64,000 bases of DNA from Patescibacteria group bacterium (GTDB lineage Bacteria; Patescibacteriota; Patescibacteriia; JAHJFT01). Under the pieces are notes generated by a model that worked only from the letters and a program-made list of their open reading frames with translations, was not told the DNA's origin and did no database searches. Made by a program: the position numbers and the translations under genes. The DNA is taken from the NCBI GenBank assembly GCA_028710985.1, contig JAQTTB010000001.1:167397-231396 (forward strand), read 5' to 3'. Within the stretch, counting starts at the first letter, position 1. Each line of letters starts with the position of its first letter. This document shows, one piece after another, positions 5,050-63,907 of the stretch.

Positions 5050-5082
5050 CTTGACTCCCCGCTCAAAACAGGGTATTATCAC
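5050..5082 (+). promoter_or_regulatory. Sigma70-like promoter (TTGACT-17-TATTAT) for the 5125 gene
   Basis: cttgactccccgctcaaaacagggtattatcacc has a near-consensus -35/-10 with 17 nt spacing. A GGAGGAGGAAGGG SD sits just before the ATG at 5125. Confidence 0.55.
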
Positions 5083-5124
5083 CTTTCAGTAAAACGCACC
5101 TTAATTTTTGGAGGAGGAAGGGAC

Positions 5125-5730
5125 ATGGAAGAGGAAAAAATCACCATTATCGTCTGCCGCCACCCGGGACATAACGAAAGGGGCATCACGCTCGAAGGCA
5201 TCGTGAACGCCATCAAGCTCGCCCGCTACCTGGTTGATGACCGGGGATTTATGCCCGAGCGCATTGTCCACTCGGGAACGGTCCACACGCGCATGGCCGC
5301 GAGCTTCATGGGCATCTCGGTGAACATGTGCGAACTCCGGCCCGAAGAGAACCAGGGTTTCCTGACCGCACCAAAACTCGTTCTGCCCGGAGAGAATGAG
5401 CTCGAAAAGGCAAGAATCGAAAGCGAGATCGCGGCGGCCGGCGGCATGGTCAAGGCGGCGCGCGAACTCTCGGCCCGGGTCCGCCGCCAGCGCGATCACC
5501 TACAGCTCACCCTGCACGGACTCGCCATGGACATGCGCGAGCACCGCCAGAACGTCGCCTGGGTCGTCTCCCACGGCGCCTTCGCCGAACTCGCCACCAC
5601 GCGCGCCGACAAGACACCCTACCCCATCGCAAACTGCGATTCCTTGATCTACTCCATGGGTCCGGATAGGGGCGGATACGCGGTCATGGACACCGACTAC
5701 ATCCGCTTCGCGGATCTCAACCTCAAGTGA
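5125..5730 (+). CDS. GC-rich (about 62% GC) hypothetical protein, possible histidine-phosphatase (SixA/PGAM-like) fold
   Basis: ORF with strong SD. IIVCRHPGH is an RHG-like motif, and ...VVSHGAFAEL resembles the second His motif of the histidine phosphatase superfamily. Codon usage is GC3-rich, unlike its neighbours. Confidence 0.5.
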   Translation: MEEEKITIIVCRHPGHNERGITLEGIVNAIKLARYLVDDRGFMPERIVHSGTVHTRMAASFMGISVNMCELRPEENQGFLTAPKLVLPGENELEKARIESEIAAAGGMVKAARELSARVRRQRDHLQLTLHGLAMDMREHRQNVAWVVSHGAFAELATTRADKTPYPIANCDSLIYSMGPDRGGYAVMDTDYIRFADLNLK

Positions 5731-5800
5731 GCGGCCCCGGCCCCTTGGCCGCGGCGCACGAAAAAACCGACGACTCTCTGTCATCGGTTATTTTTTTTAA

Positions 5801-6319
5801 TTATTCGCCCAATTCAATTAATTTAATCGGATTATTAATAATATAATTGCGGATTCTCTCCAAATCGTCATCGCATCGGACGATATGATCATAATACGAT
5901 CTTTGCCATCGAAAATCCGTTAAACCCATTTGATGAATTAATTTTGATGATGTGGTTTTAAACGCGCCAATCAATTCGGGAATCGGTTTAATTTTTCCCG
6001 GTAGGGACAGGTCGCGACCTGTCCCTACGTCGTGGTCGCGACCTGTCCCTACGATGGGATTATTGATGATTATTATTCCATGAAAATGGTTGGGCATTAC
6101 AACGGATTGATCCAATTTGATATATAAATATTGTTCCGCTAACCACAACCATTGTTTTTTGACAATCTCGCCAAATTTATTTAATTGCATCACGCCGTCA
6201 TGAATGCAACCGAAAACATGCGAACGATCATTAACACATGTGGTAATAAAATAAAAACCGTTTTGCGAATAATCGTACTCGCTCAAACGGTTTAATTTTC
6301 TATCCTTCTCTTGCGGCAT
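5801..6319 (-). CDS. IS200-like / REP-associated tyrosine transposase (RAYT) with an in-frame REP palindrome insertion
   Basis: Start taken at MPQEKDRK (Met 43 of the track ORF 5801..6445, which otherwise overlaps the upstream gene). HuH motif MPNHFHGIIII. Catalytic-Tyr region RSYYDHIV...YIINNPIK. Between these motifs the palindrome GTAGGGACAGGTCGCGACCTGTCCCTAC (plus a partial second copy) encodes GTGRDHDVGTGRD. Confidence 0.7.
   Translation of the reverse strand: MPQEKDRKLNRLSEYDYSQNGFYFITTCVNDRSHVFGCIHDGVMQLNKFGEIVKKQWLWLAEQYLYIKLDQSVVMPNHFHGIIIINNPIVGTGRDHDVGTGRDLSLPGKIKPIPELIGAFKTTSSKLIHQMGLTDFRWQRSYYDHIVRCDDDLERIRNYIINNPIKLIELGE
6001..6052. repeat. REP-like palindrome GTAGGGACAGGTCGCGACCTGTCCCTAC (1.8 copies, tandem) inside the RAYT ORF
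   Basis: Perfect 28 bp palindrome at 6001..6028, followed by GTCGTGGTCGCGACCTGTCCCTAC. A near-identical copy is at 38011..38038. Confidence 0.8.
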
Positions 6320-6329
6320 TATAAAAAAA

Positions 6330-7265
6330 TTAAAGAGTTGTAATCGGCCGTGATTGGACGATATAAAATTTTCCGCCCTCAAGCGCCCATTCAATATCCT
6401 GCGGCGCGCCGTAATGCTCTTCGATTTTTTTACAAATTTTCGCAAGCGCGACGATGTCTTTATTGGAAATTTTTTGCACGGTCTGGCGCTCGCGGGGAAC
6501 CGCGGTCTCCCTGGTGCCGACCGTGCTCTGTGAAATCATTTTTTCCTGGCGGCTCACATTCACGTCCAGAATCGCGAGCGTTGGCTTATCGACAATATAC
6601 GTATCCGGCGTGATGATGCCGCCGACAATCGCCTCACCCAGTCCCCAGCCCGCCTCAATCACCATTTGGTTTAAATCCTTGGTTACCGGATGCGCGGTAA
6701 AACAAATGCCCGAAACCTCGGACTGAATCATCTTTTGTACGACAACCGCTACCAAAACTTTTCTTTCATGCAGATTTTTTTCAAAACGGTAAAAAATCGC
6801 GCGCGGCGTATAAAGCGATGACCAACATTTTTGAATCGCGGCCGCGATCCGCCCCTCGGTGATATCAAGATATGATTCCAACTCTCCGGCCCAGGAAGCA
6901 ATTGCCGAATCCTCGGCCGTGGCGGATGAACGCACGGCCACAAATTCCGCGCCCAAATCTTTAAATGACTTTTTAATCTCTCTCGCCATCTCTTCCGGAA
7001 ACTCGGCATCGCGGATTAAGTCGCGGATTTTTATTGACGCCTCTTCCACGGATTTAATATCCTGTGAATTTACTTTTTTGAGAATCGCCGCGATTTCCAC
7101 GTTCAAATCCGAAATTTTCAAAAATTCGTCAAATGCCGAAGCGAGCACCACGAATCCGGGCGGCACCGGCATCTTGGCCCGGGTCATCTCACTGAGCGAC
7201 GCCCCCTTGCCGCCGGCAATAGCCACGTCTTTGGCAGAAAGCTGTTTAAAATTTTTGATAAACAT
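6330..7265 (-). CDS. PEP synthase / pyruvate phosphate dikinase-like N-terminal ATP-binding (PPDK_N) domain protein
   Basis: MFIKNFKQLSAKDVAIAGGKGASLSEMTRAKMPVPPGFVVLASAF matches the PPDK_N/PEP synthase nucleotide-binding domain consensus. It is the second gene of a two-gene unit with 7267..8403. Confidence 0.75.
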   Translation of the reverse strand: MFIKNFKQLSAKDVAIAGGKGASLSEMTRAKMPVPPGFVVLASAFDEFLKISDLNVEIAAILKKVNSQDIKSVEEASIKIRDLIRDAEFPEEMAREIKKSFKDLGAEFVAVRSSATAEDSAIASWAGELESYLDITEGRIAAAIQKCWSSLYTPRAIFYRFEKNLHERKVLVAVVVQKMIQSEVSGICFTAHPVTKDLNQMVIEAGWGLGEAIVGGIITPDTYIVDKPTLAILDVNVSRQEKMISQSTVGTRETAVPRERQTVQKISNKDIVALAKICKKIEEHYGAPQDIEWALEGGKFYIVQSRPITTL

Positions 7266-7266
7266 A

Positions 7267-8403
7267 TTATTTTGCCTTTCTGATTACGGTAACGCTTCCC
7301 CGCGTCGCGTCCACTTCCACCTCATCCCCGTCTTTCAGAACCTGCGTCGCAATTTTGGTGCCGGTGATGCACGGAATTTTAAATTCCCGGGAAACGATGG
7401 CCGCGTGGCAGGTGATGCCGCCCTCGTCGGTGATGATTGCTTTGACGCCCCGGAGATACGGAATAAAATGCGGCGTTGTTTGAACCGCGACCAGCACCCG
7501 GCCGTTGATTTTATTAGTTTTGCGCGCCAGTTCGCGGGCATTGCGCGCCAGCACGACTTGTCCGCGCACCCGGCCGCGAAAAGCCGGTGCGCCAAAAACC
7601 TGATTATCTTTCATCTGATATTTTTTATTTTCCGCAACCATGAGAATGTCCAAAAATTTCACGATCCCGGGAACGACTTTCTTATTGCTGATTACTTCCG
7701 CCTCCCGGCCATTCAGGCAAACAAAAATTCGTTTTCCGGCCTTTCCCTGCGCCACGATTCGGCGCGCCTCGCGGGCCGTAATTTCTCCGCGCTTAATTTT
7801 TATCACTTCTTCAACCGTAAAATATTTCATTATATCCTTGGCGGAAATTTTAATATTCAATCTCCGAATCAGCCGCCGGATGCTTTTAAAAAGCATCTCC
7901 CCCAATTTTTCCTCGGGCAAAGCCTGCGCGTTGCGCCAGCGATCGTGCTCGGCGAGCGCGCGCCGAGCAAGGGCGCCGGAAAATTTTTCCGTATTTTCCC
8001 TCATCACCTTGCCCAAAGAAAAAATTATCAAAAAAAGCGCGCTGTGCCGGCCGTAAACTTTTCGGAATTCTTCAAAATCACCGGCCCGTGCCGCGGCTCT
8101 CATTTTCGGCCAAAGCGCGTCATCTTGCTTTATATATTTATTAATAATTCCATTGTCCCGCAAAGCACACTTGAGCGAACGCGCATGAAACCGTTTGGCA
8201 TCGGCCAGATTAAAAATTCGCACCGGCAAAACCCGGCCGGACGCCACCCAAATTTCACCGATCGTGCCCGGCCAGCCGTACTGTTTCATCAGCGCATTCC
8301 GGTTTAAAAAAGCTGACGTAATAAAAAACATGGACTCATCGACCCGCACGCCGAAGAACCATTTTTGCCTCTTGATATCGCGGGAAATATTAATACTCAT
8401 CAC
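7267..8403 (-). CDS. PEP-utilizing enzyme mobile (phosphohistidine) domain protein
   Basis: The C-terminus AIITDEGGITCHAAIVSREFKIPCITG is the PEP-utilizers phosphohistidine swivel-domain signature (GGxTSHAAIxARExGIPxV). The ~250 aa N-terminal region is unassigned. Confidence 0.7.
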   Translation of the reverse strand: MMSINISRDIKRQKWFFGVRVDESMFFITSAFLNRNALMKQYGWPGTIGEIWVASGRVLPVRIFNLADAKRFHARSLKCALRDNGIINKYIKQDDALWPKMRAAARAGDFEEFRKVYGRHSALFLIIFSLGKVMRENTEKFSGALARRALAEHDRWRNAQALPEEKLGEMLFKSIRRLIRRLNIKISAKDIMKYFTVEEVIKIKRGEITAREARRIVAQGKAGKRIFVCLNGREAEVISNKKVVPGIVKFLDILMVAENKKYQMKDNQVFGAPAFRGRVRGQVVLARNARELARKTNKINGRVLVAVQTTPHFIPYLRGVKAIITDEGGITCHAAIVSREFKIPCITGTKIATQVLKDGDEVEVDATRGSVTVIRKAK

Positions 8404-12453: not shown

Positions 12454-13086
12454 CTAAATATTTTCTATTCTTTTATAACAAGTTAATTCGGCACCCTCAA
12501 TCTGAAAAGATTTTTCAAATTTAATTGCATCAGATTTATAAAAGGCTTCTCCGTCGAATGAAGGATCGTGAATTACTATCTCATCACCATTAATATCTAA
12601 TATAACCACCCTATGCAAAGAATAACGCGGCGGTTCTTCACCATATATTACCCATGGGTCTAGCATAACATCACAAACATAGTCTTTAGAAAAAAAATCC
12701 TTCAGCAAGGACACTGTCGGCTTTTGATAATAAAATTTAAAATTCTTACTTGCCAATAAATACTTAAGATCAACTTGATATTCGGCGGGATTAGCGATTC
12801 TATCGTTTAAAAAAATAAACGCCTTGGGGTCAATGTCTTCCCGAAATTTTGAGAATCCATCTTTCGCCCAAGTATTATAATTATTCTCACTAAAATCCAC
12901 AATCTCAACATCATTCTTTTCCACTAAAAACTTCCAAAAAGGAGCGAATCCTATTTCAGATTTTGTAATTTTTAAGATATCCTCCAGTGAATAATGCAAG
13001 CCCAGGGCATTCGCCACCATCGTGAAGTCTGCCGACGCGCAAGATGTTTCATCGATTTGTTTAATTTGAAGAATATTATATTTCAT
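12454..13086 (-). CDS. Papain-like cysteine peptidase domain protein (C39-like, putative)
   Basis: Very AT-rich ORF. A candidate Cys nucleophile sits in ETSCASADFTMVANALG (compare C39 NDCGxAxLAMI). A downstream HRVVILDINGDEIVIHDP motif is a candidate His/Asp region. No signal peptide. Confidence 0.4.
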   Translation of the reverse strand: MKYNILQIKQIDETSCASADFTMVANALGLHYSLEDILKITKSEIGFAPFWKFLVEKNDVEIVDFSENNYNTWAKDGFSKFREDIDPKAFIFLNDRIANPAEYQVDLKYLLASKNFKFYYQKPTVSLLKDFFSKDYVCDVMLDPWVIYGEEPPRYSLHRVVILDINGDEIVIHDPSFDGEAFYKSDAIKFEKSFQIEGAELTCYKRIENI

Positions 13087-13148
13087 TGTCTAAACCAATC
13101 AAATAATATAGTATATTAAGTGTATATTATATAAATTACAGCAAAACA

Positions 13149-14186
13149 ATGAAAAAATCAATGGAAGCAATATCTTTAAAGTGGGTAAGCCCTTTTTGGT
13201 ATTTAGGCTGTGATCAAAATTGCCAAGAATGTTTTATAGGTGAAAAAAATCGCGTAATTACTAATCTAGATATCAGGAAAAAAGCGATAGATACTCTGGC
13301 AAATAATAAAACCGAGGAAATTTTTTTATGTGGTGGTAACCCGATATTAGATCCGTTTATTGAAAAAACAGTTGAATATATCAAAACAAAAAAAATTTTA
13401 GTCGAGCTATTGAGCAACAGCTGGGATATTAATGGAAATAAATCTATAAAAAATAAAGAAAAATTTCTTCGTAATATTGATGATAGGGCCGCTACCTTTT
13501 GGGGAGGAGATGCTCAGACTCATGACAAAATATGCGGCTGCGTTGGCTCTTTTTCTAGATTAATGAATAACTTGGAAAAAATTTCCCGACAAGGATATCC
13601 TGTAATCTGTATTTTAAATGTCGTGCCGCAAAATAAAAATGACATTTATAAAACAATTAAAGAACTTAAAAGTAAAATTAATATAACTAAAGTCTGGTTG
13701 CAAAGAATATTCCCATATGGCAATGCGCTGCAAAGTGATTCTTCGACAATTTCGTTGCGACCTAATGATTTTAATTTAATTTTGAAACAATTAGTTAAGG
13801 CAAAGAATGATTTCAATTTAACGGATATATCTCTTGATTCAACTCCGCCTTTCTGCATGGTTGATAAAAAGTATTTCCAACTTATAGAAACATATAAGAG
13901 AGGGCTTTCGTTTTGGGCCTTAGATTATAAATGTAGATTATTTGGGGAATCTTTTGATGTTATAAATCCAGAATTTGCCCTGTTTGATGGAAAACCAATT
14001 TATGAAGTTGATAATCTGATCAATACAATCAAAAAAGATCCCCGAACGCAAGAGATCTTTGCCAAAAAATATTTACCCGAGAAATGCAAAATATGTGATA
14101 TCGATGAATGCTTCGGCGGATATTTAGTAAGAGATAAAGACGGACAATTAATAGTTGACCCCGTTCTATCAAAAAATTTAAGCTAA
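13149..14186 (+). CDS. Radical SAM enzyme with C-terminal SPASM-like Cys cluster (peptide-maturase-like)
   Basis: CDQNCQEC is the CX3CX2C radical-SAM motif near the N-terminus. FLCGGNPILDP is a GGEP-like SAM-binding motif. The C-terminus has CKICDIDECFGG plus earlier Cys (CMVD, CRLFG), consistent with SPASM/twitch auxiliary clusters. ~30% GC. Confidence 0.7.
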   Translation: MKKSMEAISLKWVSPFWYLGCDQNCQECFIGEKNRVITNLDIRKKAIDTLANNKTEEIFLCGGNPILDPFIEKTVEYIKTKKILVELLSNSWDINGNKSIKNKEKFLRNIDDRAATFWGGDAQTHDKICGCVGSFSRLMNNLEKISRQGYPVICILNVVPQNKNDIYKTIKELKSKINITKVWLQRIFPYGNALQSDSSTISLRPNDFNLILKQLVKAKNDFNLTDISLDSTPPFCMVDKKYFQLIETYKRGLSFWALDYKCRLFGESFDVINPEFALFDGKPIYEVDNLINTIKKDPRTQEIFAKKYLPEKCKICDIDECFGGYLVRDKDGQLIVDPVLSKNLS

Positions 14187-14903
14187 TTTACCTCCATCTA
14201 CGGGAAGGCAAACTCCGTTTATATAACTAGCTTCCTCGCTTATAAAAAATGAAATGGTATTCACTATTTCTAATAAATCCGCCATCCTACCGATTGGGGT
14301 AGACTGTTCATAATTTATAATTTCCCTTTTAAATTCTTCTGTATTTTTTGAGTAAAATCTAGCGGCATTAATTGCCATACCTTTTCTACCTATAGCGGCG
14401 GGACAAATAGAATTGCAAGTAATATTATACTTAGCATACTCTTTAGCCATTGTTCTCGTCAGTCCATTTAAAGCAAACTTCGTTACGTTATATGAAACAG
14501 TATATTCATATCCTCTTAAACCATTGATTGAAGAGATATTAACAATTCTGCCCCAATTTTGTTTCATCATATGAGGCAACACTAGCTTAGAAATTTTAAA
14601 AGGAAGCATTAAGTTTACTTCAAATGCTTTACGCATCATTTCATCTTTAACAGTATGGGTTGCCCCTCCGAACGAGCCGACTCCGACTGCATTAATTACA
14701 ATATCAAAATTTTTGGGTACTTTTCTTATATCTAAGTCCACGACCTGGATTGGACGGGCAGAAAATTTTTTACCTAAAGCTCCTGCTTCTTTTTTTGAAC
14801 TGTTATAGGTAAATGATATCTCATATCGTTTCTTGAGAGAAAGGATCTCTAGCAATTCTTTACCTAAAGCACCAGTACCGCCGGTAATTAATATTTTTTT
14901 CAT
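14178..14903 (-). CDS. Short-chain dehydrogenase/reductase (SDR) family oxidoreductase
   Basis: The N-terminal ILITGGTGALGKEL is a Rossmann TGxxxGxG motif. Y-x3-K is in YNVTK. 241 aa, typical of classical SDRs. AT-rich like its two neighbours. Confidence 0.8.
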   Translation of the reverse strand: MKKILITGGTGALGKELLEILSLKKRYEISFTYNSSKKEAGALGKKFSARPIQVVDLDIRKVPKNFDIVINAVGVGSFGGATHTVKDEMMRKAFEVNLMLPFKISKLVLPHMMKQNWGRIVNISSINGLRGYEYTVSYNVTKFALNGLTRTMAKEYAKYNITCNSICPAAIGRKGMAINAARFYSKNTEEFKREIINYEQSTPIGRMADLLEIVNTISFFISEEASYINGVCLPVDGGKLA

Positions 14904-15023: not shown

Positions 15024-15096
15024 TCGGGCTGACCGGACTCGAACCGGCGACCTTACCCACCCCAAGGGTACGCGCTACCAACTGCGCTACAGCCCG
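15024..15096 (-). tRNA. tRNA-Pro (anticodon GGG)
   Basis: Reverse complement: CGGGCTG-TA-GCGC-AGTTGGTA-GCGC-G-TACCC-TTGGGGT-GGGTA-AGGTC-GCCGG-TTCGAGT-CCGGT-CAGCCCG-A. A clean cloverleaf, 73 nt, with no encoded CCA. Confidence 0.8.
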
Positions 15097-19634: not shown

Positions 19635-22112
19635 TCAAATCACAATATTCACGAGCTTCCCGGCCACGAAAATAATCTTCTTGGGCGCTTTGCCGTCCAA
19701 AAATTTTAAAACTTTTTCGCTCTTGAGCGCGAGATTTTTCGCTTCGTCTTCCGTGATGCCAGCCAGAACCTTTATTCTGTCGCGGATTTTGCCGTTCACC
19801 TGAATAACAAGCTCGATTTCTTTGAACTCAATAAATTCGGGATTATAGCCCGGCCAATCGGATTCGAAAATCGAAGTCTTGTGCCCGATCCGCGACCAGA
19901 GTTCTTCGCAAATATGCGGCGCAAACGGCGCGAGTAGCTTCAGGAAATCCTGCGTGTCGTCGCGATCAAGCAGATACCAGGCTTCGTCTTCCTCTTTTGC
20001 TTCCCCGGCCGCGGCCGTCACCTTGTTCAAAAACGACATCAGGCTCGCCACCGCGGTGTTGAAGCCCATCTCGTCAATGTCCTCGGTTACTTTTTTCACG
20101 GTCCGGTGCAGTTCGCGCACGAGCTCGTCCTCGCCGGCGTGCAACGGCTTCTCCCCGCGCTTTTCGTAAAATTTTATCATCTCAATCTGGTGCGAAAAAA
20201 TATTCCAGACCTTGTTCAAAAAACGATTCGCGCCTTCCACGCCCTTTGTATCCCAGGCCACCGGCTGATCAAACGGCCCCATGAACATTTCATACAGCCG
20301 GAAAACATCGGCGCCGTATTTTTTTACCATTTCGTCCGGATTCACCACGTTGCCGCGCGATTTGCTCATCTTCTCCCCGCCCTCGGCTAAGATAAGGCCG
20401 TGCGAAGTTCTTTTGCGGTACGGTTCGTCGGTCGGGACCAATCCTTCATCATACAAAAATTTATTCCAGAACCGCGAATACAAAAGATGCAGAGTCGTAT
20501 GCTCCATGCCGCCGTTGTACCAGTCCACCGGCATCCAGTATTTTAATTTTTCCATGTCCGCGAAAGCTTTATCGTTTTTGGGATCGCAATACCGGAGAAA
20601 ATACCATGAGCTTCCGGCCCAGTTCGGCATGGTGTCGGTCTCGCGCCGCGCCTCTCCGCCGCACTTCGGGCATTTTGTTCTGACCCAGTCCGTAATTGCC
20701 GCGAGCGGCGACTCGCCCGTATCGGTGGGCTGATATTTTTTCACTTCCGGCAAGAGAACCGGCAAATCCTTTTCAGCGACCGGCACAAAACCGCATTTGG
20801 GACAATTTACGATCGGAATCGGCTCTCCCCAGTATCTTTGCCGCGAAAAAACCCAGTCGCGCAGTTTATAATTAATTTCGCGCGAGCCCAAATCACGCTC
20901 TTCCAGATATTGCAACATGTCCCGAATCGCTTGAGGCACGATTTTCCCGTTTAAAAATCCGGAATTCACCATAATTCCGTCGCCCGTAAATGCCTCTTTT
21001 TTTATATCTCCGCCCTGCACCACTTCACGGATTGGCAGTCCGTATTTTTTGGCAAACTCCCAGTCGCGCTGATCGTGCGCCGGCACGGCCATGATCGCGC
21101 CGGTGCCGTAGCCCGGCAAAACATAATCCGCGACATATATCGGAATCTCTTCATTGTTCACCGGATTAACTGCCATAACTCCCTCAAGCCTGACGCCGGT
21201 TTTTTCCTTGTTTAGATCCGACCGTTCCAAATCGCTTTTTCGCTTTGCTTTTTCCACATATTCTCTAATCTCTTCCTGATTCCTAATTCCTAATTCCCGA
21301 TTCCTAAGAATCTCATGCTCCGGCGCCACAACCATATAAGTCGCCCCAAATAAAGTATCCGGTCTCGTCGTAAAGACCCTGATTCCTGATTCCTGATTCC
21401 TGATTCCAAACTCAACCTCCGCTCCCTCGCTCCGGCCGATCCAATCAGTCTGTTGTTTGGAAATGCGCTCCCAAAAATCAACATCATCAAGCCCGGAAAG
21501 CAGCCGCTCCGCGTATTCCGTGATCTTCAGCATCCACTGTTCTTTTTCGCGCTTCTCTACCTGGCCGCCGCAACGCTCGCACTCCCCGTTCACCACCTCT
21601 TCGTTCGCGAGCCCGATCTTGCATGATGGGCACCAATTAATCGGCATCTTGGCCTTGTACGCCAGGCCTTTTTCAAAAAATTTCAAAAACATCCATTGCG
21701 TCCATTTGTAATATTTCGGATCCGTGGTATTCACCTCGCGCGACCAGTCAAACGCAAGCCCGAGCGACTTGAGCTGCCGCTTGAAATTCGCGATATTTTT
21801 TTCCGTGGCCGCTCTCGGATGAATGCCGGTTTTGATCGCGTAATTTTCGGTTGGCAGACCGAACGCGTCCCAGCCGATCGGGTAAAGTACGTTAAAACCC
21901 TGCATCCGGCGTTTGCGCGCGATAATGTCGAGCGCCGTGTAGCTTCGCGGATGCCCGACATGCAATCCCTCGCCCGAGGGATAAGGAAATTCAATGAGAC
22001 AATAATATTTCGGCTTGTCCGAAAAATCTTTGGCCGCAAAAATTTTATTTTTTTCCCAAAACTTCTGCCACTTTTCTTCAATTTTTTTAAAAATATATTT
22101 GTCCATAATCAT
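19635..22112 (-). CDS. leuS: Leucyl-tRNA synthetase
   Basis: Contains the HVGHPRSYT class I HIGH motif and the KMSKSRGN KMSKS motif, plus the editing-domain signature VFTTRPDTLFGATYMVVAPEH. It carries in-frame heptad-repeat-derived insertions encoding GIRNQESGIR and LGIRNQEEIR. Confidence 0.95.
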   Translation of the reverse strand: MIMDKYIFKKIEEKWQKFWEKNKIFAAKDFSDKPKYYCLIEFPYPSGEGLHVGHPRSYTALDIIARKRRMQGFNVLYPIGWDAFGLPTENYAIKTGIHPRAATEKNIANFKRQLKSLGLAFDWSREVNTTDPKYYKWTQWMFLKFFEKGLAYKAKMPINWCPSCKIGLANEEVVNGECERCGGQVEKREKEQWMLKITEYAERLLSGLDDVDFWERISKQQTDWIGRSEGAEVEFGIRNQESGIRVFTTRPDTLFGATYMVVAPEHEILRNRELGIRNQEEIREYVEKAKRKSDLERSDLNKEKTGVRLEGVMAVNPVNNEEIPIYVADYVLPGYGTGAIMAVPAHDQRDWEFAKKYGLPIREVVQGGDIKKEAFTGDGIMVNSGFLNGKIVPQAIRDMLQYLEERDLGSREINYKLRDWVFSRQRYWGEPIPIVNCPKCGFVPVAEKDLPVLLPEVKKYQPTDTGESPLAAITDWVRTKCPKCGGEARRETDTMPNWAGSSWYFLRYCDPKNDKAFADMEKLKYWMPVDWYNGGMEHTTLHLLYSRFWNKFLYDEGLVPTDEPYRKRTSHGLILAEGGEKMSKSRGNVVNPDEMVKKYGADVFRLYEMFMGPFDQPVAWDTKGVEGANRFLNKVWNIFSHQIEMIKFYEKRGEKPLHAGEDELVRELHRTVKKVTEDIDEMGFNTAVASLMSFLNKVTAAAGEAKEEDEAWYLLDRDDTQDFLKLLAPFAPHICEELWSRIGHKTSIFESDWPGYNPEFIEFKEIELVIQVNGKIRDRIKVLAGITEDEAKNLALKSEKVLKFLDGKAPKKIIFVAGKLVNIVI
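21273..21407. repeat. Heptanucleotide tandem repeats (ATTCCTR)n at 21273..21308 and 21379..21407 inside the leuS coding sequence
   Basis: ttcctgattcctaattcctaattcccgattcctaag and ctgattcctgattcctgattcctgattcc. The same unit occurs intergenically at 41799..41887. Confidence 0.85.
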
Positions 22113-26924: not shown

Positions 26925-26964
26925 CCCCGTCCTTAAAAAAAATCCCCGCATCCATCGAGAGACA
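26925..26964 (-). terminator. Rho-independent terminator for the 27023..27640 gene (ccccgcatc...gatgcggg + T-run on the minus strand)
   Basis: Reverse-strand reading gives ttcccgcatctgtctctcgatggatgcgggg followed by T8. Confidence 0.65.
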
Positions 26965-27022
26965 GATGCGGGAAGTGAGATTTCTCGTTCAAGCACAGTC
27001 GCGGCGGATTCACGAATCGCCG

Positions 27023-27640
27023 TTACTTGCGTCGAAGAAAAACCCAGCGGTAGCCAGCGCCACAGCGATGGCCAGGGTTGTCGTAGTCCGTGCCGAGCCA
27101 GCAACCGTCGTCGTCATCATGTCCAACATTGAACACCCTGATATCGCCATCCGAATCGGTAATGGGCTCCATGGCGATTAAGCGCCGCTCGCCCATGGGC
27201 TGGTCCGGGTACTGGAGCCGAAGCTGGGGGCCGACCTCGGCCGGGCAGAGCGCGAGGCCGCGCTCCTTGGCGCGTTTGTTGATTTCGGTCCAGGTCGCAC
27301 CCTCCGGGAAACCGAGCTCGGCTACCGAAGCGGCCACGAGGTCAACCTCGGTCTCTTCGATTGCCGCCGTAAAAGCGGGCTTATTCATAATGTCGCGCGC
27401 CCTGGAGCCGACGCGGACTCTGGCGGCCGCAAGAGCCTGGCAGAAGTCGTCCGCCGTCTTGAGGCCCGTGCCGAGCTTGATCGTTTTCCAGACCGGGAAA
27501 TCGACCGGCCACGGATTCTCCTTGCGGAGGAACCGCTTGAGCGCCGCGAGCCAGGTTTCTCCTTCTTTGCCGGCCAGCTTATCGTTAAGATCGTTTAATG
27601 ATCCGCGCGCTTCGTGGAGCGTGAGCCGAGTGTCATCCAT
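27023..27640 (-). CDS. GC-rich (about 62% GC) hypothetical protein, 205 aa
   Basis: ORF with GC3-rich codon usage unlike its neighbours, with its own terminator. No recognizable motif. Confidence 0.5.
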   Translation of the reverse strand: MDDTRLTLHEARGSLNDLNDKLAGKEGETWLAALKRFLRKENPWPVDFPVWKTIKLGTGLKTADDFCQALAAARVRVGSRARDIMNKPAFTAAIEETEVDLVAASVAELGFPEGATWTEINKRAKERGLALCPAEVGPQLRLQYPDQPMGERRLIAMEPITDSDGDIRVFNVGHDDDDGCWLGTDYDNPGHRCGAGYRWVFLRRK

Positions 27641-27760: not shown

Positions 27761-27901
27761 GTCATCCTGAGCCCCGACTTCCGCGAAGCGGAATGCCGGG
27801 GCGAAGGATCTCGCATTTCGCAGAAATCGACGTGGCGCCATGAACAGTCATCCCGAAACTGTGAGATCCTTCGCCCCTCGCTCCGCTCGGGCTCAGGATG
27901 A
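27761..27901. repeat. 141 bp palindromic element: inverted arms GTCATCCTGAGC...GGGGCGAAGGATCTC / GAGATCCTTCGCCCC...GCTCAGGATGAC, with hairpin family A embedded in the left arm
   Basis: Left arm 27761..27810, right arm 27861..27901. Translating it creates the spurious ORF 27676..27906 (...SFRMTAIKE..., HPEPERSEG). Confidence 0.8.
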
Positions 27902-27944
27902 CACATTGCTTGCCATTATCTTTGACGCGTCATACAATCAACCC

Positions 27945-33027: not shown

Positions 33028-33264
33028 CTACTTCCTCTTTTTGAAGCACCTCCTATTCCCCTTGCGCCTTATGAGCTCTTTGCGTTCGTAAGAGTCCAGA
33101 CAGTCCCAGCAGCGATCGCTGCCCTCGGCTACTGGCTCTTTGCATCCGTAGACGCAAAGACCGTCGTCATCCTCCATGAGCTCCGGCAAGCTGATTCCCG
33201 ACGCGATCACGCGACCAGCCGCCACTCCCTGGAGGAATCTCTCCTCATCTTCGCTCTGTCTCAC
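33028..33264 (-). CDS. GC-rich Cys-rich small protein (78 aa)
   Basis: CVYGCKEPVAEGSDRCWDCL gives a 4-Cys cluster with a basic C-terminus. ~62% GC. Confidence 0.4.
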   Translation of the reverse strand: MRQSEDEERFLQGVAAGRVIASGISLPELMEDDDGLCVYGCKEPVAEGSDRCWDCLDSYERKELIRRKGNRRCFKKRK

Positions 33265-33274
33265 TCCACCCTCC

Positions 33275-33577: not shown

Positions 33578-33685
33578 AAATTACGATTTTGTCAAGTAGG
33601 GGCGACTCGCGAGTCGCCCCTACTTGACGATTAATAAATATTTCTCTACAATAAGCTTAAATTTTAGTCTCGTCCGCTTTGCCTT

Positions 33686-48326: not shown

Positions 48327-48370
48327 TGAGATACAAAAAATCACCCTTACGGATGATTTTTTGATAATCC

Positions 48371-48484
48371 CGGCAATGACCTACTTTTCCGGACGCTAGG
48401 CGTCCAGTAACATCGGCGCTGGAGGGCTTAACTACCGTGTTCGATATGGGAACGGGTGTGGCCCCTCCGCGAAAATCACCAGGG
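48371..48484 (-). rRNA. rrf: 5S ribosomal RNA
   Basis: The reverse complement CCTGGTGATTTTCGCGGAGGGGCCACACCCGTTCCCATATCGAACACGGTAGTTAAGCCCTCCAGCGCCGATGTTACTGG... matches the 5S helix I/loop B/loop C consensus. Ends are approximate (+/-5 nt). Confidence 0.85.
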
Positions 48485-49011: not shown

Positions 49012-49780
49012 CATTCTGTTACTTTGCCAAACCACATCCGTTTTCAACCGGTGCTCTGTGGTGATTCCGACTTTCGTCGGAACTCTGCATGTCGCCATGC
49101 AGTTCGGACTATATCTTATCCCGATATATTTCGGAATTTCGGCATATAGTCTCTGAGGATTTCAAGGAATCTAATACAATTTTCTTATTAATTTTTCGGT
49201 ATTTACCGGCGCAATTCATACTGTAAGCAAAGCAAATAATTCTTTTAGCGCCATCAATGGTTGAGTGATCTGCATTCTCCATCATATCCACTATGCGCTT
49301 AAAAATTACCATTGCGTCATGTTTCTTTGAAATTAAAGGATACTTCTCGAAAAATGGAATTATCGTCTTTCTTAAGTCATTCCTATTTCTAACCACATAC
49401 ACCAGCGTATCATCTTTTTTATTTCGAGCGTGATTATTTTTGATATAGCCACAACCGAAATAATTTTTAATCGCTTCCAGAGTTTCTTTACGCAAATAAC
49501 TCTGATTTATGTGGAATTCAGGAATGAATTTAAGACCTGTTTTCATTTTTGCGTCTTTATAAATCGCAATATGAAAAGTTCCTTCGCCTTCAACGAAACC
49601 GGTAATATACCATGGATTTAGATTCTTCGATCTTTCCTGCTGATTATCTGCACTCATCACTTTTTTACTTTAATATATATATTATATCAAAGTAGTGTGA
49701 GATTCACAAGCCTCACTCCTTTTTGAGGCTCTCCAGACTTTCCAGCATTTAGCCGAATTTATAGACAGCACGATCTTCAT
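49012..49780 (-). mobile_element. Group I intron in 23S rRNA at the I-CreI-type site (E. coli ~2593, after GAGACAGT)
   Basis: The 23S exon sequence GAACGTCGTGAGACAGT | TCGGTCTCCTATCCACCATGGGCG is split by 769 nt that contain a LAGLIDADG ORF. Confidence 0.8.
49109..49660 (-). CDS. LAGLIDADG homing endonuclease (single-motif, I-CreI-like)
   Basis: WYITGFVEGEGTF is a LAGLIDADG motif near the N-terminus. 183 aa, AT-rich, encoded entirely within the 23S intron. Confidence 0.8.
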   Translation of the reverse strand: MMSADNQQERSKNLNPWYITGFVEGEGTFHIAIYKDAKMKTGLKFIPEFHINQSYLRKETLEAIKNYFGCGYIKNNHARNKKDDTLVYVVRNRNDLRKTIIPFFEKYPLISKKHDAMVIFKRIVDMMENADHSTIDGAKRIICFAYSMNCAGKYRKINKKIVLDSLKSSETICRNSEIYRDKI

Positions 49781-49824
<44 letters not shown>

Positions 49825-49837
49825 TGGCGAACAGCCA

Positions 49838-49893
<56 letters not shown>

Positions 49894-50002
49894 TCTCCGT
49901 CGTCGATATGGACTCTTGGACGGAATCAGCCTGTTATCCCCGGAGTAGCTTTTATCCGTTGAGCTCCCGCCGTCCTACTTCGAACGGTCGGATCACTAAC
50001 TT

Positions 50003-50034
<32 letters not shown>

Positions 50035-50382
50035 GCAGTAAAGCCGACTTATGCGTTTGCACTTTCAGCCCGATTTCCATCCGGGCCAAGTCGACCTTTG
50101 TAAACGCCTCCGTTACTTTTTAGGAGGCAACCGCCCCAGTTAAACTACCCACCAGTTACTGTCTCCCAAACCGGATTCACGGTTCGAGATTAGAATACAC
50201 ACAACACAAGGGTGGTATCTCACTGTTGTCCCGAAGGACTCCCACCTATTCTGAACATGCGGAGCATGTATCCAATAACAAGTTATAGTAAAGCTTCACG
50301 GGGTCTTTTCGTCCAGCCATGGGTAAATCGCATCTTCACGACTCTTGTAATTTCACCGAGTCCCTCGTTGAGACAGTCCCCC

Positions 50383-50413
<31 letters not shown>

Positions 50414-50415
50414 CG

Positions 50416-50461
<46 letters not shown>

Positions 50462-51267
50462 GCGTTCATCCGCGCTTAAGATCAAGGCTTTTCCCGAAGG
50501 ATAACCTCTCCCCTTAACGTTCGGACACTGGCCAGGCATCAGCCCCTATACATCACCTTACGGTTTAGCAGGGACCTGTGTTTTTGGTAAACAGTCGCTA
50601 GGAATACTTTAGCTGCGCCCCAACACGAGGTTGGGGAGGCTTTATCCCGAAGTTACAGCCGCTTATTTGCAGAGTTCCTAAACGAGGGTTCTCTCGTACG
50701 CCTTGGCACACTTATGCCCACCCACCTGTGTCGGTTTACAGTACGGATACCTAAAAGTTTAATGCTAGAGGCTTTTCTTGGCTCCACGTCTTCTCATATT
50801 GGCCGGTATTACCAGCCTTTAGATCGCCTGCGGCCTGATGGCCCGCGGATTTACCTGCGGACCGGCGCGCAAACGCCCTACGCATATAACCAAAATACGC
50901 TAGAGATTTCGGGAAGCGTCCCCCCATCGCGCTCTTAGGTAGTGCAGGAATATTAACCTGCTCATCCATCGGTTACGCCTTTCGGCCTCACCTTAGGACC
51001 GACTAACCCTGGGACGAAGGTCGTTGCCCAGGAAACCTTGGGTTTACGGCGGAGAGGATTCTCACCTCTCTTTTTGTTACTAATGCCAACATTCTCTCTT
51101 CTCATCGCTCCACCGAACCTCACAGTTCGACTTCAACGCAATGAGAACGCTCCTCTACCACTCGCTCCGATAAATCGGAACGAATTCTCGTCTTCGGTAC
51201 TAAGTTTTAGCCCCGAAATATTTTCGGCGCAAAGCAACTTGACCAGTGAGCTGTTACGCTATCTTTA

Positions 51268-51305
<38 letters not shown>

Positions 51306-52813
51306 AGTCGCTCCACAGCCTTTCACACTTAACCTAGATTTTGGGACCTTAGACGGAGATCTGGGCTTTTTCCCTTTCGACTAATGGAGCTTAGCCCCCA
51401 CAGTCTGACTGCCAGGAACACTTTACGGTATTCGGAGTTTGGTTAGGAGGAGTAGATTTCTCCCTCCGTCCCATTCAGTGCTCTACCCCCGTAAAGCTAT
51501 TAACTGACGCTAGCCCTAAAGCTATCTCGAGGAGAACCAGCTATTACCGAGTTCGATTGGAATTTCTCCGCTATCCACAACTCATCCCCGCGTGTTGCAC
51601 GGCGCGTGAGTTCGGGCCTCCATTCCGCCTTCGCGGAACTTCACCCTGGTCATGGATAGGTCACCCGGTTTCGGGTCTTGCATGCGCTACCATAGACGCC
51701 CGTTAAGGCTCGCTTTCACTATGGCTCCGCCCCCGCAGGGGCTTAACCGGCAACGCATGACAAACTCGTTGGCTCATTCTTCAATAGGAATGCCGTCACC
51801 CCGACTTGCGTCGGGGCTCCGACTTTTTGTAAGCACACGGTTTCAGATACTGTTTCATCTCCCTTCCGGGATGCTTTTCAACTTTCCCTCGCGGTACTTG
51901 TTCACTATCGATCACAAGAAGTATTTAGTCTTGCCACATAGTCGTGGCTGATTCCCACAGGATTTCACGAGTCCCGTGGTACTCTAGGTTGAATGCTATA
52001 AATAGAGATCCCCTTTCGCGTACAGGGCTATCACCTTCTTTGGCTCCGCTTTCCAGCGGATTCTACTAGGGAAGATCGCTTTATTTACCAAGGCTTGCAA
52101 GCGCCTTGAACGCAAACACCCGCAACCCCCCGCAGACATATGGTCTTGCAACCTTAGGCGCAAACTCTATTTCACCCGAAGGTGTCACTTTGTTCACGCT
52201 TGGTCTGCGAGGTTTGGACTGATCCCTTTTCGCTCGCCACTACTCAGGGAATGGGCTGACCGATAAGTATCCGGCTCGCAAGATACGAGCCAAATACTTA
52301 AGGCCAGCATTGTTTTCTGTTCCTCTGGCTACTGAGATGTTTCACTTCGCCAGGTTGCCTTCTTGCACCTATGTATTCAGTGCAAAATATCCCATTCTTC
52401 CAATGGGATGGGTTTCCCCATTCGGATATCCCCGGGTCAAAGGTTGCTTGCCACCTAACCGAGGCTTTTCGCAGGCTGCTACGTCCTTCATCGTCTTCTT
52501 ATGTCGAGTCATCCTCCGTGCGCTCTTCGTGCTTCTACAACCATTTAAACTTTTTAGTTCAAATGGCACGTACAAGATTTTAATGATGCTATTTACTCGT
52601 CATTATTAAATTGTCAATGTTCACTTGGCCTTGTGGCCAAACCCTGTTCGTCTGGTCGCAAGTGAGTCAAAAAACCGCCCGGTCGTGTCCAAGCGGTGCG
52701 AAAACAAGCATTAAAACTGCGTCAACTGATTGGACACGTATTTGATTGGCTTGAAACTCTCATATTTTAGCGAAAAAATGCTCTTTTTATGATAATTATT
52801 TTAAACTGCCCAT

Positions 52814-53508: not shown

Positions 53509-53516
53509 AAAATCCT

Positions 53517-56970: not shown

Positions 56971-57360
56971 ATGATTAATAAAAATAAAATATATAATTTG
57001 GAAGAAAGAACGGCGGTTATGGGTATTGACACAATCAAAATGTGTAAAAATATTAAACACGATATAATAATAAATCCTCTAATATCACAGCTCATACGTT
57101 CAGCTACCAGCGTTGGTGCGAATTATATGGAAGCAAATTCCGCATCTTCTAAGCGTGATTTTGTAAATAAAATCTTCATTTGCAAAAAAGAATCGCAAGA
57201 AACTATGCATTGGCTCCGCATGATCAGCGAATGTTGTCCAGAAAAAAGCAAAGAAATCTCACAATTGCGTCAAGAGATGCATGAATTAATATTAATATTT
57301 GGGAGAATAATTGCAACTATAAAAAATAGGGTAAATTCGAAACTCCAAAATCAAAATTAA
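56971..57360 (+). CDS. Four-helix-bundle protein (TIGR02436, '23S rRNA intervening-sequence protein' family)
   Basis: LIRSATSVGANYMEANSASSKRDFVNKIFICKKESQETMHWLRMI matches the family signature (RSAxSIxxNIAEG...DF..KL.IAxKEAxET.YWL.L). AT-rich. Confidence 0.7.
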   Translation: MINKNKIYNLEERTAVMGIDTIKMCKNIKHDIIINPLISQLIRSATSVGANYMEANSASSKRDFVNKIFICKKESQETMHWLRMISECCPEKSKEISQLRQEMHELILIFGRIIATIKNRVNSKLQNQN

Positions 57361-60494: not shown

Positions 60495-60516
60495 GTAAAT
60501 AAATAATCATGAAACT

Positions 60517-61155
60517 ATGAAAAATAAAATCGTAATTCTCATTTTAATCATCATCGTTATCACCATAGCAATAATAATTGGTTTTTATTTTGTTCAAAAA
60601 AATAAATCATCAATCAACTCTATCGAAAATACTGTGCCATCAAGTCAATCTGAAGTAAACAATCAAGCGAATCCCGAACAGCAACAAAATAAATTGGTAA
60701 CTGATGACTTTGAAATCAACCTCCCTACGGGCTGGCGGCAAACTGCTCCTGCGATTGGGGCTTCGGCAATGGCCGTTAATGCCGACGAGCAACTCAACGA
60801 TCCTGCGGCTCAGAAGATTAATTTTAGAAGTTATTTTGCCGTAAGTTATGATACGTTGCAGGGAAAAAATTTAAACGAATATTTGCAAAACGTCGAAAGT
60901 CAGCTGCGGCAAACCATTTCCAATGCTGTTTTTGCTCAAGAGCATGATACGACGATAAATGGAAAAGCGGCTCGGGCGGTTGAGGTGAACCTGACTCAGC
61001 AGGGAGTGGATTTTAAAATTTTAATGGTAGCAATTAAAGGCGTCGGTGATGATGTTTGGGTAATATCCTTCAATACTCTCCAGGGCAGTTGGGCAGAGTA
61101 TCAGGAAACATTCTCCGATATTGCTAGCAGTTTTAATTTGAAAAAATTAGATTGA
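60517..61155 (+). CDS. Secreted/membrane-anchored hypothetical protein (212 aa)
   Basis: N-terminal TM/signal region (IVILILIIIVITIAIIIGFYFV), a Gln/Asn-rich linker, then a globular domain. No confident family. Confidence 0.55.
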   Translation: MKNKIVILILIIIVITIAIIIGFYFVQKNKSSINSIENTVPSSQSEVNNQANPEQQQNKLVTDDFEINLPTGWRQTAPAIGASAMAVNADEQLNDPAAQKINFRSYFAVSYDTLQGKNLNEYLQNVESQLRQTISNAVFAQEHDTTINGKAARAVEVNLTQQGVDFKILMVAIKGVGDDVWVISFNTLQGSWAEYQETFSDIASSFNLKKLD

Positions 61156-61484
61156 AGATTAAAGAAGCACAGGACCTCGTTCCTGGGAAGTACTACCGCT
61201 TCGATCCTCCAGTCAAGGCGACGGCGTTTCCCACTGGCGGTCCCAACACCTGTGCGCTGGAGGAGTGCGAGTTCAACCGCGGCTGGTACGTGGGCCTGAA
61301 GGACGGAAATCACCTTTTCCAGGGCAAGCCGGTGAACGATCAGCGCGTCATCCCGACGCCACAAGGCTACGGAGACGCACCCGACCTGGACGAAATCTTG
61401 GAGAAACTCCGGGGCAGCTACTTCCACGTTCTGTTCATCGGCGGAAGCCGGGCGACGCTCGACTCCGACCAGAGTCATCATTGA
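61152..61484 (+). CDS. GC-rich (about 60% GC) hypothetical protein, 110 aa
   Basis: ORF overlapping the previous stop (ATGA). GC3-rich, unlike its neighbours. Followed by terminator hairpins at 61568..61600. Confidence 0.45.
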   Translation: MKIKEAQDLVPGKYYRFDPPVKATAFPTGGPNTCALEECEFNRGWYVGLKDGNHLFQGKPVNDQRVIPTPQGYGDAPDLDEILEKLRGSYFHVLFIGGSRATLDSDQSHH

Positions 61485-61600: not shown

Positions 61601-61603
61601 ATA

Positions 61604-61675
61604 TGCGCCCGAGAGGAATCGAACCTCTATCATCAGCTCCGGAAGCTGACATTCTATCCGTTGAACTACGGGCGC
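61604..61675 (-). tRNA. tRNA-Arg (anticodon CCG)
   Basis: Reverse complement: GCGCCCG-TA-GTTC-AACGGATA-GAAT-G-TCAGC-TTCCGGA-GCTGA-TGATA-GAGGT-TCGATTC-CTCTC-GGGCGC-A. No CCA encoded. Confidence 0.75.
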
Positions 61676-61681
61676 GTAAAT

Positions 61682-62659: not shown

Positions 62660-62660
62660 T

Positions 62661-63215
62661 CTATTTGCTTAAATAACGGAGCGCCTCGCGCACCTTGTCG
62701 CCCGTGTCCGTCACTTCCTCGGAAATTTTGCGCACCGCGTCGCGCGCCTGCGCGCTCGTGTACCCAAGATTCTTAAGCGCCTGAACCACTTCATGCTCCT
62801 CCTCGCCCTCGGCCGAAAGATCCAACTTGCCCTTAAGCTCAATGATAATTTTTTGCGCCGTCTTTTTTCCCACGCCCGAAACCTGGCTCACGTAATCAAC
62901 GTTGCCCTTTTCAATATTTTTGACAAGATCCGTGAGGCTCCCGAGCGCGAGCACGTTCATTGCCATTTTGGGGCCCACGCCGGAAATATCCAAAAGCTTC
63001 CAAAAAAATTCCAGTTCCCCACGCGTCGCGAATCCGTAAAGTTCACGGCTGTTCTCGCGCAGATATTCATGCGTGAAAAAAGTCTTTTTTTCGCCTTCGG
63101 CAATCAGGGCCGCGTATTTCACCGGTAAAAAAATCTGATACCCGATTCCCGCGTTTTCCAAAATCACATAATTCGCGCCTTTCGCTTTAATTATGCCGTC
63201 AACATACGTAATCAT
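62661..63215 (-). CDS. ruvA: Holliday junction DNA helicase RuvA
   Basis: MITYVDGII...GIGYQIFLP...LYGFATRGELEFFWKLLDISGVGPKMAMNVL. RuvA domains I and II with HhH motifs, plus a C-terminal domain III. Confidence 0.92.
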   Translation of the reverse strand: MITYVDGIIKAKGANYVILENAGIGYQIFLPVKYAALIAEGEKKTFFTHEYLRENSRELYGFATRGELEFFWKLLDISGVGPKMAMNVLALGSLTDLVKNIEKGNVDYVSQVSGVGKKTAQKIIIELKGKLDLSAEGEEEHEVVQALKNLGYTSAQARDAVRKISEEVTDTGDKVREALRYLSK

Positions 63216-63258
63216 ACGCGTTCATCTTATCAAAAAACGTCATCAAAATCAAATTGAA

Positions 63259-63290
63259 GTGTAGGGTTCGCATAAATGCGAACCCTACAC
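63259..63290. repeat. REP-like perfect palindrome GTGTAGGGTTCGCATAAATGCGAACCCTACAC
   Basis: 14 bp arms with a GTAGGG head and CCCTAC tail, as in the other REP copies. It is followed by a terminator hairpin (cccgctcgagacagatgtctcaagcggg) at 63296..63336. Confidence 0.75.
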
Positions 63291-63340
63291 GATAAATAAA
63301 AAAATTCCCGCTCGAGACAGATGTCTCAAGCGGGAAAAGG

Positions 63341-63907
63341 TCACTTTCCGACGAGCGCGTTGCACTTCTTGAGTGCTTCCTGCGCTTCGGAAAAGTCGGG
63401 ATTGTCGCCCGCGAGCTTGCGGAGCGACGGCAGTGCTTTGCGGCAACCGGCCGTGCCATGCGCGAGCTGCGGCTTAATGCCGTTCCACACTACCTTATCG
63501 AGCGGCGAGAGGCTGGTCTTTACTGCCGGGATTGGAACCGGCGCCGTCTCCTCCGAAGCCGCCTCGACCGATGGCGCAGGCGGTGGCGCTTCCTCAGACG
63601 CGATCTTGGGCAGCGGCGCCTCCACGGTTGGCGATTTCGGATTCATGGACTCGCTGCTCATGCTGCGAACGAAAAGTATCATGGCACCAGCGAGCACGAT
63701 CATGGCCACGAATCCGATCATCGCGTACCACAGACCCTTGGTTCGTTCCGGCTTCATCGCTCTCACGCTGCCGCCTTCGGTGATGATGAGCTTGGGCGCC
63801 GGCACCGGCGGCTCCGGAACGGAGAACACTCCTGTCGGCGGTTCGGGCAATGGCATCATGCCCGAAGGCCTGGTCTTCTCCATGTGCAGCCCCTCCTCGG
63901 CCGGCAA
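63341..63907 (-). CDS. GC-rich (about 60% GC) Pro/Ala-rich single-pass membrane protein (may extend upstream beyond the window)
   Basis: Has a TM helix LWYAMIGFVAMIVLAGAMILFV and Pro-rich segments (PEPPTGVFSVPEPPVPAP, EEAPPPAPS). The sequence remains GC-rich to the window end. Confidence 0.5.
   Translation of the reverse strand: MPAEEGLHMEKTRPSGMMPLPEPPTGVFSVPEPPVPAPKLIITEGGSVRAMKPERTKGLWYAMIGFVAMIVLAGAMILFVRSMSSESMNPKSPTVEAPLPKIASEEAPPPAPSVEAASEETAPVPIPAVKTSLSPLDKVVWNGIKPQLAHGTAGCRKALPSLRKLAGDNPDFSEAQEALKKCNALVGK

Follow-up and report, generated by a model that had tools for sequence, protein, structure and literature searches.

The 64,000-nucleotide stretch analysed here (the window) lies within a 744,538-bp contig of a Patescibacteria metagenome-assembled genome (MAG; proteins MDD49950xx, locus tags PHW53_*) and contains five short blocks of coding sequence, numbered 1 to 5 along the window, that are richer in G+C than their surroundings. 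On balance we favour the explanation that these are unrelated native chromosomal genes of the Patescibacteria lineage, not one acquired set, and, with low confidence, that their GC excess would come from a local GC bias acting at the level of the DNA. In its support, the syntenic positions of blocks 1, 2, 3 and 5 are occupied by counterparts in related Patescibacteria, and these counterparts, at 25-65% amino acid identity, mostly still stand 9-17 GC points over their own neighbours. To judge from sequence, the components are of ordinary or known kinds, namely an orphan target gene of a diversity-generating retroelement (DGR) of the candidate phyla radiation (CPR) type, a divergent histidine phosphatase, a kinase, small zinc-ribbon proteins and an ORFan. 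The lineage-persistent GC excess common to these genes is real.

The gene content of the window (S12, IF-2, LeuRS, ComEC, PP2C, RuvA, RuvB and FemAB) is consistent with CPR/Patescibacteria, as is the proposal of a CPR-like lineage made in a preliminary description of this DNA. Its RNA genes are eight tRNAs and paired 23S and 5S rRNA genes that no 16S gene accompanies; Rfam, searched at the gathering threshold and also at E values up to 1 over blocks 3-5, returned only tRNAs and rRNAs. The GC content of the window is 48.6%, and the called open reading frames (ORFs) of at least 150 aa have a median GC of 50.2% and a median GC at third codon positions (GC3) of 0.55. The preliminary description had listed five GC-rich blocks, of which three proved to be strong (62-63% GC, GC3 0.74-0.80): block 1 (5125-5730, plus strand) at 61.7% GC and GC3 0.80, block 2 (27023-27640, minus strand) at 62.0% and 0.74, and block 5 (63341-64000, minus strand) at 62.9% and 0.76. 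Block 4 (61152-61484, plus strand; 59.2%, GC3 0.74) is moderate. Block 3 (33028-33577, minus strand) is weak, with a coding-type GC3 signal in its 78-aa ORF only (block 3b, 33028-33264; 57.0%, GC3 0.71) and no codon-phase signal in the ORF upstream (block 3a, 33275-33490; 60.2%). The highest window gene outside the blocks reaches 57.3% GC. The compositional shift falls at the gene borders, as had been described, and is sharp at 50-nt resolution. Window GC is uneven in both directions, and because islands of 31-35% GC, which deviate as much as the GC-rich genes, widen the distribution, the z scores of the blocks in this window come to no more than about 2. Five unrelated protein families show raised GC at every codon position. 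When the five block proteins were compared with each other no sequence similarity was found, which rules out a single shared protein family and counts against the common origin that the preliminary description had raised.

The persistence of the excess can be followed in block 5, which we predict to be the 3′ portion of a gene for a membrane Ser/Thr kinase, located directly upstream of ruvA. The block had been described as an isolated single gene, but its frame is open to coordinate 64000, the gene runs off the window, and the fragment matches the C-terminal part of kinases of about 570 aa. It comprises the end of the kinase domain, a linker, a transmembrane (TM) helix and a TPR-like tail. A word-index homology search was empty for blocks 1 and 5; relatives of block 5 were found through synteny, using the neighbouring FemAB-family gene as bait, and those of block 1 by exhaustive HMMER. 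All the relatives fetched via FemAB have, directly upstream of ruvA, a gene of 560-580 aa with Pkinase, a TM helix and TPR repeats. The block 5 fragment aligns to the C-terminal 200 aa of these kinases at 22-29% identity, and the RuvA proteins are 68-73% identical. Pkinase is matched by the syntenic orthologues at E values of 1e-39 to 1e-44, and the kinase domain of block 5 itself lies beyond 64000. The orthologue has 54.5% GC against 45.7% in its neighbours in the related locus L088, 54.0% against 37.8% in L090, 58.3% against 41.0% in L145 and, for a partial gene, 61.3% against 49.1% in L089, so that the kinase gene stands 9-17 GC points over its neighbours in every relative examined. The architecture of Pkinase, TM helix and TPR repeats in L088, L090 and L145 is that of PknB-like, Hanks-type Ser/Thr kinases, which combine a single TM helix with a repeat domain outside the cytoplasm; block 5 differs from these in that its putative sensor tail is TPR-like and not PASTA.

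Block 2 encodes a protein of 205 aa (MDD4995027.1) and is predicted, by homology to genes paired with a template repeat (TR), to be the variable-protein gene of a CPR-type DGR. The preliminary description had held that only the phosphatase among the blocks had recognizable motifs, which was wrong for this gene and for the kinase tail. More than 1,855 homologues of the protein were found, and a genome scan gave 271 loci; our statistics on DGR targets rest on 79 of these that were fetched, nearly all from Patescibacteria, to whose proteins that of block 2 is 47-65% identical over the best segment. In about half of these related loci the target is followed by a short fragment like its 3′ end, often by an ORF of about 125 aa, and by one of about 340 aa; Pfam identifies the former as bAvd (PF22296) and the latter as an RVT_1 reverse transcriptase (RT). 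In 32 of the 79, the last ~135 nt of the target match a copy located 310-400 bp downstream, and 542 of the 562 mismatches in these 32 loci (96.4%) fall at adenines of the downstream copy. This confinement to adenines gives the related loci the signature of the TR and variable repeat (VR) of DGRs. Several genomes carry two or more target genes of this family, sometimes in tandem, and L017, L033 and other related loci have two TR-like copies 3′ of one target.

In the window, sequence comparison places the region homologous to the VR of TR-bearing family members in the last ~130 nt of the gene (27028-27156, minus strand), and this region is identical in three assemblies. An inverted repeat is often found directly after the stop codon of DGR targets; a short hairpin stands at that position in block 2 (26992-27022, minus strand) and is not statistically significant. 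A sensitive blastn search of the gene against the whole 64-kb window found no second copy that could be a TR, and no repeats were found in 20-34 kb. Searches of the 64-kb window by tblastn found no DGR-type RT with 38 family RT sequences and no bAvd homologue. The order in L008 is aminoacyl-tRNA synthetase (aaRS), YmdB, RNaseY, target-TR-RT and infB, with flanking genes 69-74% identical to those of the window and an orthologue 65% identical to block 2 (best segment, residues 45-205) that has 58.8% GC against 48.7% in its neighbours. In L008 the target, TR and RT immediately precede infB, whereas in the window block 2 is separated from infB by only 206 bp containing a terminator. Because TR and RT are both lacking from the window while the syntenic locus keeps them in that place, block 2 is predicted to be an orphaned target, the TR and RT having been lost at the locus or else lying outside the 64 kb, in which case a DGR elsewhere on the contig might act on it in trans.

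The related loci share TR, RVT_1 RT and often bAvd with the cellular DGRs restricted to Patescibacteria/CPR (clade 2) in the passages of Roux et al. (2021; PMC8144416) that treat them. CPR targets are described there as having no TM segment and no known domain, and as probably having a novel C-Lec fold. The block 2 protein agrees in having no TM segment and no Pfam or NCBIfam match. Its AlphaFold2 model is confident (pLDDT 93), with Foldseek matches limited to weak ones to C-type lectin domains. Block 2 differs from the elements in those passages in having no TR, RT or bAvd-type Avd within 64 kb. About 30 kb from block 2, a 129-aa protein of the 23S-rRNA-IVS/four-helix-bundle type (56971-57360; PF05635, 31% GC) is related to DGR Avd, and no reverse transcriptase lies near it. 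Between block 2 and truB there is also a nested palindromic element of about 142 bp (27761-27902), with arms CATCCTGAGCCC/GGGCTCAGGATG and an inner inverted repeat of 21 nt, which occurs once in the window and overlaps the first ATG of the TruB ORF.

The GC excess of block 2 is a property of its family. Across the 79 loci the target gene has a mean GC of 56.1% against 42.4% in its flanks, about 14 points; the excess is over 5 points in 74 of them and its edges are sharp. The target stands above the host genes in 64 of 68 loci (p = 6e-15), with GC3 of 0.65 against 0.42, and the excess divides into about 7 synonymous points and about 4 from amino acid composition. The RT and Avd genes of the same cassettes are about 5 points under host GC. 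Mutagenesis of adenines by the DGR was considered as the cause and ruled out, as outside the VR the A-ending and T-ending codons are depleted about equally (by 9.5 and 8.3 points at third positions). The excess is alike with (+12.8) and without (+13.0) an adjacent TR. In the passages of Wu et al. (PMC5758913) on composition, GC-rich segments are reported to flank the mutagenised part of TR and VR. A statement that whole target genes are GC-rich relative both to the host and to their own RT was not found in PMC5758913 or PMC8144416 by a term search, which is not a full literature review.

Block 1 encodes a protein of 201 aa (MDD4995007.1) that is predicted to be a divergent histidine phosphatase of branch 1, in agreement with the SixA/PGAM-like assignment made earlier. 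On its own the protein falls below every Pfam and NCBIfam threshold, and its single-sequence AlphaFold2 model (pLDDT 37) is too poor for use of the fold. Exhaustive HMMER against 1.84 billion representatives found 31 relatives, all at no more than 40% identity. In the family alignment of 30 members H13 is invariant and R12, R54 and H150 are conserved in at least 90%; the motifs kept are RH(P/G), an Arg within S-G-x-x-R-T and a C-terminal His within S-H-(S/G). The RH(P/G), Arg and C-terminal His are those of histidine phosphatase branch 1 (PF00300: SixA, PGAM and cofactor-dependent mutase-like phosphatases). The family profile matches PGAM-like/SixA structures at E values of 8e-7 to 8e-4 (3eoz at 7.7e-7, SixA 4hbz at 4.6e-5), 23 of the 30 members match PF00300, and two carry the JGI name SixA. 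Apart from the sub-threshold scores and the small, distant set of relatives, the gene differs from known members of the branch in lying beside or between split PPDK_N and PEP-utilizers genes, in the window and in two other genomes.

In L087 and L084 the block 1 orthologue occupies the same slot (M50, ThiI-like, [gene on opposite strand], ... NDK, MBL, ComEC, LeuRS), with flanking genes 58-89% identical to those of the window and phosphatases only 31-40% identical. The L087 orthologue, at 40% identity, has 54.4% GC against 42.2% in its neighbours and GC3 of 0.69 against 0.36, and the tandem paralogues of L173, at 30-38% identity, have 52-59% against 41-43%. In L172 (3076-7374) and L173 the family members sit between PPDK_N and PEP-utilizers genes. 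In the window, 5801-8403 holds an IS200/Y1-transposase-like ORF between block 1 and a PPDK that is split into PPDK_N and PEP-utilizers ORFs; the IS200/Y1-like ORF has 38% GC and a weak Pfam match, and its homologue in L155 is 41% identical. That the family sits next to PPDK-like genes is a hint that the phosphatase and the phospho-His carrier domain may be functionally connected. In L084, two other nearby genes stand out from a background of about 46% GC: a fused OTCase/PyrI-like gene (3927-5447, 57.8%) and a gene for a 196-aa protein with an apparent signal peptide (5961-6551; 54.8%, GC3 0.72).

Block 3 is predicted to be a pair of small zinc-ribbon proteins. Block 3a encodes a Cys-rich, zinc-ribbon-like protein of 71 aa, unannotated at NCBI, with an ATG after GGAGG, and block 3b a Cys-rich protein of 78 aa; in L088 two homologues with about 34-35% identity immediately precede the same aaRS and keep the order of the pair, with 57-58% GC against 45.7% in their neighbours. 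A structured RNA in 33265-33560 was considered and rejected, as the z score of -1.75 is not significant. Block 3 and tRNA-Lys have divergent promoter-like sites, and precisely in the space separating these sits an imperfect palindrome centred on CGCG (33590-33628, with a perfect 30-nt core at 33594-33623), a possible operator or bidirectional element. Block 4, an ORFan of 110 aa (MDD4995056.1), begins at a TTG that shares bases with the stop codon of the preceding AT-rich gene (60517-61155, 39% GC), and its translation appears to be coupled to that of this gene. Block 4 adjoins tRNA-Arg. In the window the genes for tRNA-Arg(CCG) and tRNA-Lys(CUU) stand 27.8 kb apart (33761-61603), whereas they are adjacent in L008 (1627-1813) and L088 (11048-11348); the intervening DNA holds GmrSD, RuvB, the rRNA genes and several tRNAs, and blocks 3 and 4 mark the two edges of this rearrangement.

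The preliminary description had given each block a native-looking promoter and terminator, and this holds for part of them. The promoter-like site TTGACT-17-TATTAT (5051-5079, plus strand) and the GGAGG Shine-Dalgarno sequence at ~5110 that it reported for block 1 are both present, and a hairpin between an A-run and a T-run (5765-5789) is probably a bidirectional terminator common to block 1 and the convergent 5801-6445 ORF. Block 3 has a promoter-like TTGACA-16-TAGAAT with an extended TG (33568-33595, minus strand) and a terminator (33007-32982, minus strand). The intrinsic terminator reported for block 2 is also there, as a 14-bp stem and T8 (26943-26974, minus strand) between the gene and infB; no consensus promoter was found for block 2, and block 4 is without a promoter of its own.

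How such an excess could be maintained can be argued from divergence and from codon position. At the 25-65% identity of the orthologues the synonymous sites should be saturated, so the high GC3 would be an equilibrium maintained gene by gene and not the fading relic of an import. Since the rise in GC extends to every codon position in five unrelated proteins, a local, directional GC-biased force at the DNA level would be acting on these genes. The most plausible candidate, which we infer with low confidence, would be GC-biased gene conversion at often-recombining loci. Conversion of this kind predicts higher GC3 where recombination is greater, and accelerated GC-directed substitutions at all codon positions. 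In bacteria it is reportedly a genome-wide statistical trend, as Lassalle and colleagues are said to have described in 2015; here, in contrast, there are discrete single-gene peaks of +10 to +17 points that are held across genera.

Several observations weigh against native genes under a local bias. The block 1 orthologue of L084 is not GC-rich (45.7% against 46%), nor is one of the two paralogues of L172, and block 3 is absent from L008. No homologue of block 4 was found among the fetched loci and no encoding contig is on record besides the MAG, so nothing is shown for that block. Other fast-evolving genes of the window, a PD40 protein (29% identity) and a 154-aa protein (34-37%), are not GC-rich. 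Finally, the GC of DGR targets tracks host GC only weakly (slope 0.31, intercept 0.42), and in 3 of 7 genomes with two target copies the copies are not each other's closest relatives.

These last two points leave room, for the DGR family, for a shared mobile pool, and repeated replacement by alleles from a higher-GC pool circulating among Patescibacteria, through allelic exchange at conserved sites or movement of DGR cassettes, is an alternative that we regard as unlikely while giving it more weight than the others. The genes would then never come to equilibrium with a single host. The passages of Wu et al. cited above take the atypical GC of DGRs as evidence of horizontal transfer, by which DGRs are known to move. 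The genes are also far more divergent than their neighbours, and the presence of ComEC makes DNA uptake plausible. However, the RT and Avd of the same cassettes are below host GC while the target is far above it, which is hard to square with joint transfer. The L090/L145 pair, the closest in RuvA (80%), is also the closest in the kinases (52%), which fits vertical descent, the other 4 of the 7 same-genome target pairs are mutual best hits, and no pool of such composition was identified.

Selection on the genes themselves could in principle keep their GC high, through G/C-ending codons (translation rate, mRNA lifetime), avoidance of AT-rich internal signals or a demand for Gly, Ala, Arg and Pro. 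In its favour, about 4 of the 11-13 points of excess seen for the DGR family, and 5-9 points in the genes of the window, can be put down to amino acid composition. Several blocks are complete transcription units in themselves, with strong promoter-like and terminator-like sites, and tRNAs whose wobble base is C (CUU, CGC and CCG) are retained in the genome. We nevertheless consider this explanation quite improbable. The same shift is seen at all three codon positions in five unrelated families, and the highly expressed S12 and IF-2 are not GC3-rich. The native mRNAs of blocks 1, 2 and 4 fold no better than their synonymous-codon shuffles (z -0.6 to 0), and excess mRNA structure in the GC-rich genes was rejected on this ground.

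The preliminary description interpreted the blocks as horizontally acquired genes that resist amelioration, with a high-GC host or a phage as possible source. Resistance to amelioration is borne out for the GC excess, but acquisition is not supported, as four of the five blocks have syntenic counterparts that are mostly GC-rich too. Recent import of each gene from a high-GC donor (a phage or, for example, an actinobacterial host), its amelioration still incomplete, would account for the atypical composition and the sharp edges, and for some blocks there are neighbours of the kind seen at genomic islands, namely an IS200-like ORF adjoining block 1 and tRNA genes beside blocks 3 and 4 at a synteny breakpoint; block 4 has no relatives at all. 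An acquired island should be absent from the equivalent site in close relatives, and for blocks 1, 2, 3 and 5 the equivalent site is occupied, the absence of the block 3 pair from L008 apart. Unlike an island, each block comprises no more than one gene or two small ones; its position is kept in relatives, and its diverged orthologues share its composition against differing background GC. Homologues were found only in CPR-type genomes or uncultured metagenome contigs and in no named high-GC lineage. An origin from a phage or plasmid was rejected, as PHROGs, INPHARED, PLSDB and BFVD were all empty and relatives occurred at 4 loci in IMG/VR, that is, on only 4 of 2.9 million viral contigs. No donor lineage or mobile vector of matching composition was found. 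Synteny, the restriction of homologues to CPR and the lack of phage or plasmid relatives thus contradict import, which is very unlikely overall and largely refuted for blocks 1, 2, 3 and 5. An assembly chimera, or contaminating reads from a high-GC organism, has nothing in its favour except the composition itself and almost no probability, because Logan contigs from SRR22315506, SRR22315508 and SRR22315509 run through the block 1 and block 2 junctions at 100% identity to the window, each of the ORFs in blocks 3 and 4 occurs on 3 Logan contigs of 4-5.6 kb, and synteny recurs in relatives; the blocks are not chimeras, in line with what the preliminary description had suggested.

Two other features of the window depart from its mean composition in the opposite direction. 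A three-gene island of 32-35% GC (12454-14903), encoding a C39-like peptidase, a radical SAM protein and a short-chain dehydrogenase, adjoins tRNA-Pro (15024-15096) and is missing from L084, where DUF3160 is followed directly by the 153-aa and NDK genes; none of the GC-rich blocks resembles a classical acquired island as closely as this one. A LAGLIDADG homing-endonuclease ORF (49109-49660; 34% GC, Pfam E 4e-23) lies in the 1.26-kb spacer between 23S (49749-52539) and 5S (48368-48483), and no 16S gene adjoins the 23S. Runs of a 7-nt tandem repeat (CCTGATT/CCTAATT) occur at 21275-21410 within the LeuRS reading frame.

If block 2 is an orphan, the window would present a target gene left behind after the loss of its TR and RT, at a site where a relative keeps the complete element. 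A wider proposal, which we offer as a tentative possibility only, is that fast-evolving sensing and recognition genes of Patescibacteria (the phylum-wide DGR targets, the Ser/Thr kinase, the histidine phosphatase and the zinc-ribbons) are held, over family-level divergence, at an equilibrium GC and GC3 much above those of the rest of each genome by a locus-specific process at the DNA level, which could be GC-biased conversion at recombination hot spots or conversion linked to the retroelement. Atypical GC is routinely taken for foreign DNA, and here this would misclassify native genes, including a DGR target. If the proposal is true, single-gene GC peaks in Patescibacteria genomes would mark hyper-recombining or hypervariable loci and not foreign DNA, and a GC excess caused by local biased conversion or recombination would provide a marker, readable from sequence alone, of hypervariable loci in uncultured organisms.

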